From positions 74,712,918-74,776,917 of the forward strand of contig NC_090390.1 of assembly GCF_036365525.1 (NCBI RefSeq): a stretch of DNA of 64,000 bases, in the 5' to 3' direction. Each line of letters opens with the position of its first letter. Within the stretch, counting starts at the first letter, position 1. Origin of the DNA: Heterodontus francisci (lineage: Eukaryota). The notes beneath the pieces were generated by a model. The model was given only the letters and a program-made list of their open reading frames with translations, made no database searches and had not been told where the DNA came from. A program made the translations under genes and the position numbers. Of this stretch, positions 1,245-56,042 are shown in pieces.

Positions 1245-1450
1245 AAACAAAAGCAAAATATTGCGTATGCTAGGAACTGAAACAAAAACTTAAAGTGCTG
1301 GAAATACTCAGCAGGTCTGGCAGCAACTGTGGAGAGAGAAACAGAATTAATGTTTCAAGTCGAGGCTTTCATCAGAACTGGAACAAGTTAGAGATGTAAT
1401 CTCTTACATCTGCCCGAGCTACTGAGTATTTCTAACATTTTCTTGATTTA
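1245..1450 (-). mobile_element. Penelope-like short element with degenerate hammerhead motif and a short inverted arm
   Basis: Same family as 8392-8529 and 55891-56042. The reverse complement of 1345-1379 reads AGTT-CTGATGA-AAGCCTCGACTT-GAAACAT-T-AATT; 1400-1450 is an inverted partial copy. Confidence 0.7.
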
Positions 1451-8391: not shown

Positions 8392-8529
8392 CCAGTTCTG
8401 ATGAAAGGTCACAGATCTGAAACATTAACTCTGTTTCTCTCTCCACAGATGCTGCCTGACCTGCTGAGTATTTCCAGCACTTTGCTTTTATTCCAGATTT
8501 CCAGCATTTGCAGTATTTTGCTTTTATTT
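8392..8529 (+). mobile_element. Penelope-like short element (pLTR-derived) with hammerhead motif
   Basis: ccagttctgatgaaaggtcacagatctgaaacattaactctgtttctctctccacagatgctgcc...cagtattttgctttt; several related copies in the window. Confidence 0.75.
8394..8430 (+). ncRNA. Minimal type I hammerhead ribozyme motif (stem III palindrome broken by CpG decay)
   Basis: Stem I AGTT/AACT, core CTGATGA (8398-8404), stem II AGGTC/GATCT, then GAAAC-AT-T. Confidence 0.55.
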
Positions 8530-29605: not shown

Positions 29606-29741
29606 CCCCAGTCTCAAATTACTAACAGACTACAAATAGCTAAGCATTATGAGGTGGGATATGTTCTAGGGGAGATATATTGATATTAACATTATGCTGA
29701 ATATCGATGAAAATAAGTGACAGCCATTCACTGGCTCATTC

Positions 29742-30025
29742 CTTAGGACAATGCCTTGACCAATCACAGTCAAGCTGCCTGGTTTAAAGTTCAAACAAAG
29801 CTTGGCAGTTAACTGTCAGTCACCATAAACTGGTGCATTCTCCATGGCAACACCTCTACCAATCAGAGTCCACTTGCCAACCAATCAGCACTCTCTTCTC
29901 ATACTGTATAAATTTGTTGCTTCCCTTACATTAGTATTCTTGCGAATTGTCCTGATGATTGCAAGATGAAAAGCTTCGACAAAATGTCTAATTTTCAGCA
30001 ATACTCAAATTCCATACTACCAAAC
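29742..30025 (+). mobile_element. Penelope-like pLTR / retrozyme-like unit with CCAAT boxes, TATA box and hammerhead
   Basis: Three CCAATCA boxes (~29760, ~29859, ~29881), TATAAAT at 29907-29913, hammerhead core at 29947-29982. Confidence 0.55.
29938..29982 (+). ncRNA. Minimal type I hammerhead ribozyme motif (second family)
   Basis: Stem I TTGTC(29947-29951)/GACAA(29978-29982), CTGATGA (29952-29958), GAA (29968-29970), palindromic stem III AAGCTT (29971-29976), cleavage triplet TTC. Confidence 0.65.
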
Positions 30026-30223
30026 AACTATTATCCTGAATGTTGTGAAGACGACACTTGTACAGTTGAGCGTCTCTCATCCACTCCTTGTAAATGTGTC
30101 TTAAATTGCTAGTTAGAAGCAGCCTGGGAGCAGTCATTTTGTGTATTACATCCCCAGTGCAGCACACAATGAGGTTCTGCCTTGCCGGCCCCATGAATGG
30201 GAATGATGGGCTGTGGGCCACAC

Positions 30224-45410: not shown

Positions 45411-45632
45411 TAATAAAAACAAGAAATGCTGGAAATACTCATCAGGTCTGGCAGCATCTGTGGAGAGAGAAGCAGAGTTAACGTTTCAGGTCAGTGACCC
45501 TTCATCAGAACTAGACCTGAAACATTAACTCTGCTTCTCTCTCCACAGATGCTGCCATACTTGCTGAGTATTTCTAGCATTTCTTGTTTTTATTTCAGAT
45601 TTCCAGCATCTGCAGTATTTTGCTTTTATTTT
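45411..45632. mobile_element. Fold-back Penelope-like element (antisense arm 45411-45512, sense arm 45513-45632)
   Basis: ~80-bp inverted arms of the 8392-8529 family. Confidence 0.8.
45476..45512 (-). ncRNA. Minimal type I hammerhead ribozyme motif, intact core
   Basis: Reverse complement AGTT-CTGATGA-A-GGGTC-ACT-GACCT-GAAACGT-T-AACT. Confidence 0.7.
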
Positions 45633-55890: not shown

Positions 55891-56042
55891 TAATAATAAA
55901 TAAAAGCGAAATATTGCAGATGCCAAAAAGCTGAAATAAAATCAGAAAGTTCTGGAAATACTCAGCATGTCTGGCAGCATCAATGTTGAGAGAAACAGAG
56001 TTAACGTTTCAGGTCTGTGACCTTTCATCAGAACTCATTGAT
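55891..56042 (-). mobile_element. Penelope-like short element inserted in the LINE
   Basis: Flanked by ATGGTACA (55883-55890, 56043-56050); same family as 8392-8529. Confidence 0.8.
55999..56035 (-). ncRNA. Minimal type I hammerhead ribozyme motif, intact core
   Basis: Reverse complement AGTT-CTGATGA-A-AGGTC-ACA-GACCT-GAAACGT-T-AACT: stem I AGTT/AACT, perfect 5-bp stem II, palindromic ACGT stem III, GTT triplet. Confidence 0.72.

Follow-up and report, generated by a model that had tools for sequence, protein, structure and literature searches.

A hammerhead motif lying between a TATA box and an AUG codon in the Heterodontus francisci DNA analysed here (a stretch of 64,000 nucleotides, referred to below as the window) belongs, by sequence homology, to the pseudo-LTR (pLTR) of a truncated Penelope-like element (PLE), and its loop II pairs with the leader just 5' of stem I in a seven-pair helix that covaries across PLE lineages. 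The family to which it belongs retains a stem II of a single pair. The earlier note on this DNA had described a compact promoter-plus-ribozyme module of Penelope-like character; the module is not free-standing, being the pseudo-LTR of a retrotransposon, and the Penelope-like origin is borne out by the reverse transcriptase (RT) and GIY-YIG frames upstream of longer copies, by the domains found in homologues and by the layout of the most complete copies.

A search of the H. francisci genome (6.0 Gb) gave 3,737 candidates, the best matches among the 40 scored being 92-94% identical to the window. In dispersed copies the homology begins at 29710 and stops near 30003-30012 or 30028-30035. Upstream of the longer copies lie YVDD-type RT and GIY-YIG frames, whose homologues match RVT_1 and GIY-YIG in Pfam; four of the element's own ORF fragments, searched alone, gave no Pfam match. 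The 20 fetched loci align along an 841-aa homologue, P0005, with sister copies covering residues 4 to 839, and a single ORF with RT followed at the C-terminus by a GIY-YIG endonuclease, the hallmark of EN+ PLEs, is present in sister copies and absent from the truncated window copy. The ORF N-terminus matches P0005 from residue 4; three near-full-length loci, L107, L109 and L111, run from the AUG into the ORF and display the pLTR-ORF-pLTR layout. This layout, together with RT and GIY-YIG in longer copies and homologues, therefore identifies the window copy as a 5'-truncated PLE; it carries a 1-nt deletion near 29990, within the first codons of the ORF. The copies in this genome also show the other hallmarks of EN+ PLEs: partial tandems that form pseudo-LTRs, inverted copies truncated at the 5' end, and a 3' tail. 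The motifs of the Penelope/Poseidon clade given in bioRxiv 2021.04.23.441226 (DKG, two cysteines inside GIY-YIG, no extra zinc-finger linker) were judged in the homologues by eye. Genome-wide, exact patterns detect at least 4,779 copies of the hammerhead motif. Among 151 overlapping loci, most of them too short to show a full tandem, one motif was present in 102, an inverted pair in 40, a same-strand pair in two and none in seven. A covariance model found no second copy of the motif within the window, and the window copy is an ordinary decayed, solitary repeat. Dozens of near-identical broken copies with a 160-aa frame and one TGA (G000 C35, C50, C1806, C1395, C712, C1960 and others; L116, L117) have a pseudo-LTR match that ends at 29972, and probably represent one copy carried by a larger amplified repeat.

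Table 1. Features of the Penelope-like copy and its hammerhead, in window positions
Feature	Position	Strand	Basis
5'-truncated Penelope-like element copy (ORF end, pseudo-LTR, ORF start/tail)	29710..30035	+	dispersed copies share the segment
Last 25 codons and stop of the RT/GIY-YIG ORF	29710..29787	+	longer copies end the ORF in the same frame
CCAAT box 1, inside the last ORF codons	29760..29766	+	sequence
CCAAT box 2	29859..29865	+	sequence
CCAAT box 3	29881..29887	+	sequence
TATA box (TATAAAT)	29907..29913	+	sequence; spacing in representatives
Predicted start of transcription (A29936, 29 nt downstream of the TATA T)	29935..29938	+	inferred from TATA spacing and conserved A/T columns
5' strand of the seven-pair pseudoknot helix	29938..29944	+	covariation
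Stem I, 5' strand	29947..29951	+	sequence, copies in the same genome
Hammerhead core C3-A9 (CTGATGA)	29952..29958	+	sequence, other copies
One-pair stem II (G-C in the family, T/T in the window copy) closing the 7-nt loop II	29959..29967	+	copy counts, alignment
Loop II, 3' strand of the pseudoknot	29960..29966	+	
Core G12-A15.1, palindromic stem III and C17	29968..29977	+	GAAA at 29968-29971; predicted cut after 29977
Palindrome AAGCTT (stem III)	29971..29976	+	
Stem I, 3' strand	29978..29982	+	sequence, copies in the same genome
AUG and first ORF codons, forming the PLE tail with two preferred 3' ends	29984..30032	+	near-full-length copies L107, L109, L111

All parts listed in the earlier note (stem I, CTGATGA, GAAA, AAGCTT, C17, TCTTGC/GCAAGA, TATAAAT and three CCAATCA boxes) are present letter for letter where it placed them, and the motif has the type I core of CUGANGA, GAAA and a UH site with stem I. 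Stem III, said there to be palindromic, remains so when it changes (AAGCTT/AACGTT), with two-sided change in two of the ten aligned rows described below. The single copy by itself would be weak evidence, since a loose core pattern, with nine matches in the window against 6.9 expected, shows no enrichment there, and 6-bp complements to the window loop occur in 24 of 2,552 window stretches (~1%). Rfam gave no match in the window at gathering score, and at E up to 10 the window copy returned only snoRNA and miRNA noise and no hammerhead; with no such match and no enrichment, the case rests on the relatives. At the family level the evidence is strong, the short-loop core pattern giving 3,802 matches as against 195 for a reversed control. 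The search for a second family of the G-N7-C type in the same genome led to 84 matches, all of which looked like variants of the same family, and such a family was rejected. A different hammerhead-like repeat family occurs in the window at 8398-8422 (+), 45484-45508 (-), 56007-56031 (-) and 1353-1375 (-); its stem II of five pairs, an additional base behind A9 and its palindromic stem III fit the published minimal PLE type.

Stem II had been regarded as essentially absent, the window copy having T/T at positions 10.1 and 11.1, with the advice to examine the consensus pair across genomic copies. That consensus is G-C, and the T/T reflects the decay of one copy. In the genome-wide exact patterns, an unbiased set, G stands at 10.1 in 4,386 of 4,779 copies and another base in 393. 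Among 118 other copies, which are selected sets (73 by likeness to the window, 45 by pattern), 105 have G and none has T at position 29959, and at position 29967 there is C in 62 and T in 54. The following dinucleotide in the first 100 listed G copies is CG in 41, TG in 31, CA in 23 and another in five, a spread with the signature of CpG decay. From the G counts and these dinucleotides, the family therefore keeps one G10.1-C11.1 pair that closes a loop of 7 nt, and T/T represents damage: the window copy lost the pair by a rare G>T change and CpG decay. The pair is G-C in eight of the ten cross-lineage rows as well. Within the first 100 listed rows, T occupies 11.1 in 38 of 76 A10.1 copies, 31 of 100 G10.1 copies and nine of 14 T10.1 copies; because it is also frequent in the last of these, age rather than selection may lie behind the combinations within the genome. 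The T at 29959 lengthens a competing hairpin (-10.7 kcal/mol, against -9.1 kcal/mol for the intact copy L060; ViennaRNA), and the window copy is probably slow or inactive. Low activity is possible, since a U-U mismatch at 10.1/11.1 is tolerated in some natural hammerheads (PMC3088659).

The complementarity of TCTTGC (29938-29943) to GCAAGA (29961-29966), described earlier as perfect over six bases, is true as a pairing, and its extent is larger: G29944.U29960 adds a seventh pair, and the helix takes up the whole of loop II. Of the 118 copies within the H. francisci genome, 105-115 retain any given pair of the seven, and no compensatory change was found, a pattern that would be expected for neutral decay. 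The covariation for which the earlier note had proposed to look appears across lineages. These were sampled by protein alignment, which retrieved 80 of 194 metagenome loci and three genome-contig loci, most of them one redundant family. At the lineage loci the same architecture with different letters follows the ORF end or precedes the ORF start, and seven PLE lineages have six distinct loop/leader pairs, with the loops TGCAAGA (window family), TGTCGGA, TGTCAGA (two lineages), CGCTGGA, TGCGTCA and AGCTAGA. Every loop has its complement in its own leader, in a stretch that begins 13-17 nt ahead of the core. Protein identity is 42-55% between the window family and the other lineages and 50-74% among the latter. 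All lineages have exactly seven loop bases within a retained G-C pair and a fixed gap of 7-10 nt between helix and core. In the ten aligned rows, 69 of 70 cells are paired and four of the seven pairs have changed on both sides, as against 19-46% of cells paired in slid registers. The covariation score was reached by none of 500 shuffles and the count of two-sided pairs by 12 of 500, controls that lean toward the helix since the ten rows were chosen by the authors and the structure was derived from the same sequences. The model gave 61 matches, 55 being strong, and across them 93% of 270 cells are paired. Watson-Crick runs measure 5-6 pairs with the own leader and 2-5 pairs across lineages; when G-U is allowed, some cross-lineage combinations also reach seven. 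Three of the seven pairs barely vary, and the lineages are related. Loop II thus pairs with bases 5' of stem I and does so with covariation, which is what defines a pseudoknot hammerhead, and the two-sided changes across lineages indicate that the helix is real.

Some of the related loci deserve separate mention. Locus L153 has a degenerate core and an intact helix. The largest related metagenome family (L157, L166, L175, L185 and related loci) mostly has U for C at core position 3, only L158 and L177 within it keeping the C; this may be a U3.G8 variant that is tolerated, or else a subfamily that spread despite being dead. None of the three genome-contig loci has the pseudoknotted motif with a one-pair stem II. 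Viral contigs contained no protein relative, and their five pattern matches, in which leader-loop pairing was absent by eye, were taken as chance. An archaeal-MAG contig with a PLE-like RT match (L233 2664, +) bears a conventional hammerhead-like motif; its DNA is probably eukaryotic and misplaced in the bin.

Six of eight representatives have a TATA motif 45-50 nt ahead of the core and two have none, and the A and the T directly before the pseudoknot strand are each kept in nine of ten aligned rows. Spacing and conservation place a putative Pol II start near 29936, about 2 nt before the pseudoknot strand, in which case the ribozyme would be the whole 5' UTR, of about 48 nt. The AUG at 29984 directly follows stem I, with the predicted cut 6 nt upstream. 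Three lineages have 3-6 nt between cut and AUG, one has 14 nt and another three have about 45-55 nt, so that tight abutment is not universal. Loci L159, L162 and L163 have a common motif of ~20 nt between stem I and the more distant AUG. An intron spanning the ribozyme (29934-29998) was rejected, as it would remove the start codon common to homologues; the corresponding splice joint was not among the 15 of 108 joints listed. The family is present in assembled contigs from four runs.

The ends of the copies bear on the template of retrotransposition. The 5' ends of 39 ORF-start copies are scattered: 15 extend beyond the predicted start, three, too few to mark a start, begin at 29938-29939, and none begins at the cut site (29978), where there is no pile-up. 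As 25 of the 39 run through that site, cut linear RNA is not the usual template. Most copies also pass the cut site 3'-ward, to two preferred ends about 25 nt apart. Since copies cross it in both directions, the templates would be either uncut more-than-unit RNAs, which agrees with the green anole element (PMC11167929), or re-ligated circles, which agrees with the circle model (PMC4209133); the copies alone fit both.

By analogy with known pseudoknot hammerheads, the leader-loop II helix is probably an activating pseudoknot that braces stems I and II, with cutting dependent on a second copy for stem III. The seven-pair helix would hold the two stems together, and cutting, 6 nt upstream of the AUG, would follow once the stem III palindromes of two copies have paired. 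The dimer could form within one transcript, between its 5' and 3' pseudo-LTR copies, or between two transcripts, perhaps aided by the element's protein, and cutting would give unit-length RNA, possibly re-ligated into a circular template. Directly supported are the PLE identity, the family's G10.1-C11.1 pair, the covarying helix and the location between TATA and AUG. A one-pair stem II with a 6-bp pseudoknot is reported to cleave with kobs above 1.2/min and to be rescued by compensation (PMC3088659), the crystal structure 8YDC combines G10.1-C11.1 with a 6-bp PK helix (PMC11300833), and PLE hammerheads are described as needing dimers (PMC4209133) or protein (PMC11167929). Against this reading speak the absence of compensation within the genome, where only decay is seen, the two representatives without a TATA motif, the dispensability of the anole PLE ribozyme for insertion in vitro (PMC11167929), and predicted folding. 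In ViennaRNA minimum-energy folds, from a program whose model excludes pseudoknots, the leader-loop helix forms without stem I in five of seven sequences, and a downstream hairpin can take the 3' strand of stem I. In two lineages this small hairpin captures the AUG as well (window 29978-29988; L177 3879-3892), possibly as an alternative fold between cutting and translation. A broader proposal, held with little confidence, is that in a whole Penelope lineage the ribozyme makes up the complete 5' UTR, with the pseudoknot strand supplied by the capped transcript's first bases and the cap removed a few bases upstream of the AUG by dimer-dependent cutting. If true, this would be a concentration-sensing switch from capped mRNA to an uncapped or circular template, or to cap-independent translation, limiting the element's own expression.

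The same folding results would suit a conserved brake, in which the leader-loop helix, folding ahead of the rest as a nested hairpin, would hold the ribozyme inactive on the capped mRNA so that the ORF is translated, and would have to open or be remodelled by the element's protein before cutting. Its pair probabilities are about 0.7-1.0 in the window, L060, L154 and L159 (for L177 the comparison comprised the minimum-energy fold only) while stem I is unformed; integrated copies derive mostly from uncut templates, and the ribozyme of the anole element, PAc, is reported to cleave only with protein (PMC11167929). However, helix and stem I are mutually compatible, and the seven loop bases within the retained G-C pair and the 7-10 nt gap match the geometry of activating pseudoknot hammerheads, making a brake unlikely, if somewhat less so than the other alternatives. 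Less probable still is that the fold persists chiefly because it serves the element's RNA in binding or in starting translation, with cutting incidental or lost: the prevalence of U at C3 in the largest metagenome family, the degenerate core beside an intact helix in L153 and the report that PAc insertion is unaffected by hammerhead mutants (PMC11167929) fit such a role, yet lineages with 42-74% protein identity have retained the core, G10.1-C11.1, the UH site and the palindrome. That the complementarity is chance or an echo of common descent, to which the ~1% background in the window, the relatedness of the lineages and the three nearly invariant pairs would lend themselves, is very hard to reconcile with four pairs changed on both sides and six distinct loops each fitting its own leader at one register.

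Among known systems the activating pseudoknot hammerhead proposed here is closest in setting to the minimal metazoan PLE hammerheads (Cervera and de la Pena 2014, PMC4209133), which are likewise type I, lie in pseudo-LTRs, have a short stem I, a dimer-suited palindromic stem III and G10.1-C11.1, and exist as thousands of solitary truncated copies. In all 56 rows of Fig. S3 of that paper, however, helix II has at least three pairs, usually with an extra base after A9, whereas the window family has a one-pair stem II and no extra base. PLE hammerheads are usually without tertiary contacts according to a review (PMC6155905), in contrast to the loop II-leader pairing found here; the window family thus departs from this type in all three respects. 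The short-stem-III variants of Lunse, Weinberg and Breaker (2017), palindromic and cleaving as dimers as summarised in PMC6765202, share with it the PLE link and the short palindromic stem III. Pseudoknot hammerheads, known in all three types (Perreault 2011, PMC3088659), resemble it in the one-pair G10.1-C11.1 stem II and the loop engaged in a helix of 6-7 pairs (PMC3088659; 8YDC, PMC11300833; RF03152). The Rfam family RF03152 (RAGATH-1-hammerhead) shares the G-N7-C consensus and is the only ribozyme family matching the intact copy L061, at 14.6 bits (E 9.1), far from the gathering score of 56.3; its stem III is long. In 8YDC loop II pairs with a hairpin loop (helix IV) and a minor-groove triplex is described (PMC11300833), whereas in the window family loop II has a single-stranded leader as its partner, and the mere 1-4 nt between this and stem I leave no room for helix IV. 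With a palindrome of 6 nt in place of a closed long stem III, the window family, unlike 8YDC and RF03152, would need a second copy to build stem III. Thousands of these motifs per genome escape annotation, since neither standard descriptors nor Rfam pick them up.

Hammerheads of type I are also present in the 5' UTRs of chryso- and fusariviruses (PMC13725137). They too have a short helix II, one of them cuts 7 nt before the start codon, and cutting can reportedly permit cap-independent translation; these are viral, have a longer helix III, are reported without loop-loop contacts and, where helix II is short or missing, cleave slowly (1e-2 to 1e-3 per min). In the green anole Poseidon element PAc (Frangieh 2024, PMC11167929), two reverse-transcription start sites 3' of the ribozyme give the tail, comparable to the two preferred 3' ends here, and the main template is likewise uncut RNA, but the ORF of PAc starts inside stem II and the cut falls 26 nt after the AUG rather than 6 nt before it. 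The combination of a PLE with a one-pair pseudoknot hammerhead was not found in the literature, although the variants of Lunse, Weinberg and Breaker (2017), known here through a summary, may include it; nine-letter motifs from three lineages were not found in 11 supplements of PMC3088659. With promoter, ribozyme and start codon set side by side, the 48-nt system makes the effect of the cut on translation and retrotransposition directly testable. Hammerheads in PLE pseudo-LTRs, one-pair pseudoknot hammerheads and fungal-virus hammerheads cutting just before an AUG are each known separately. PLE hammerheads are usually described as minimal, slow and contact-free; that one PLE lineage combines a one-pair stem II with a pseudoknot that covaries suggests that selection has favoured a fast fold under the control of dimer formation.
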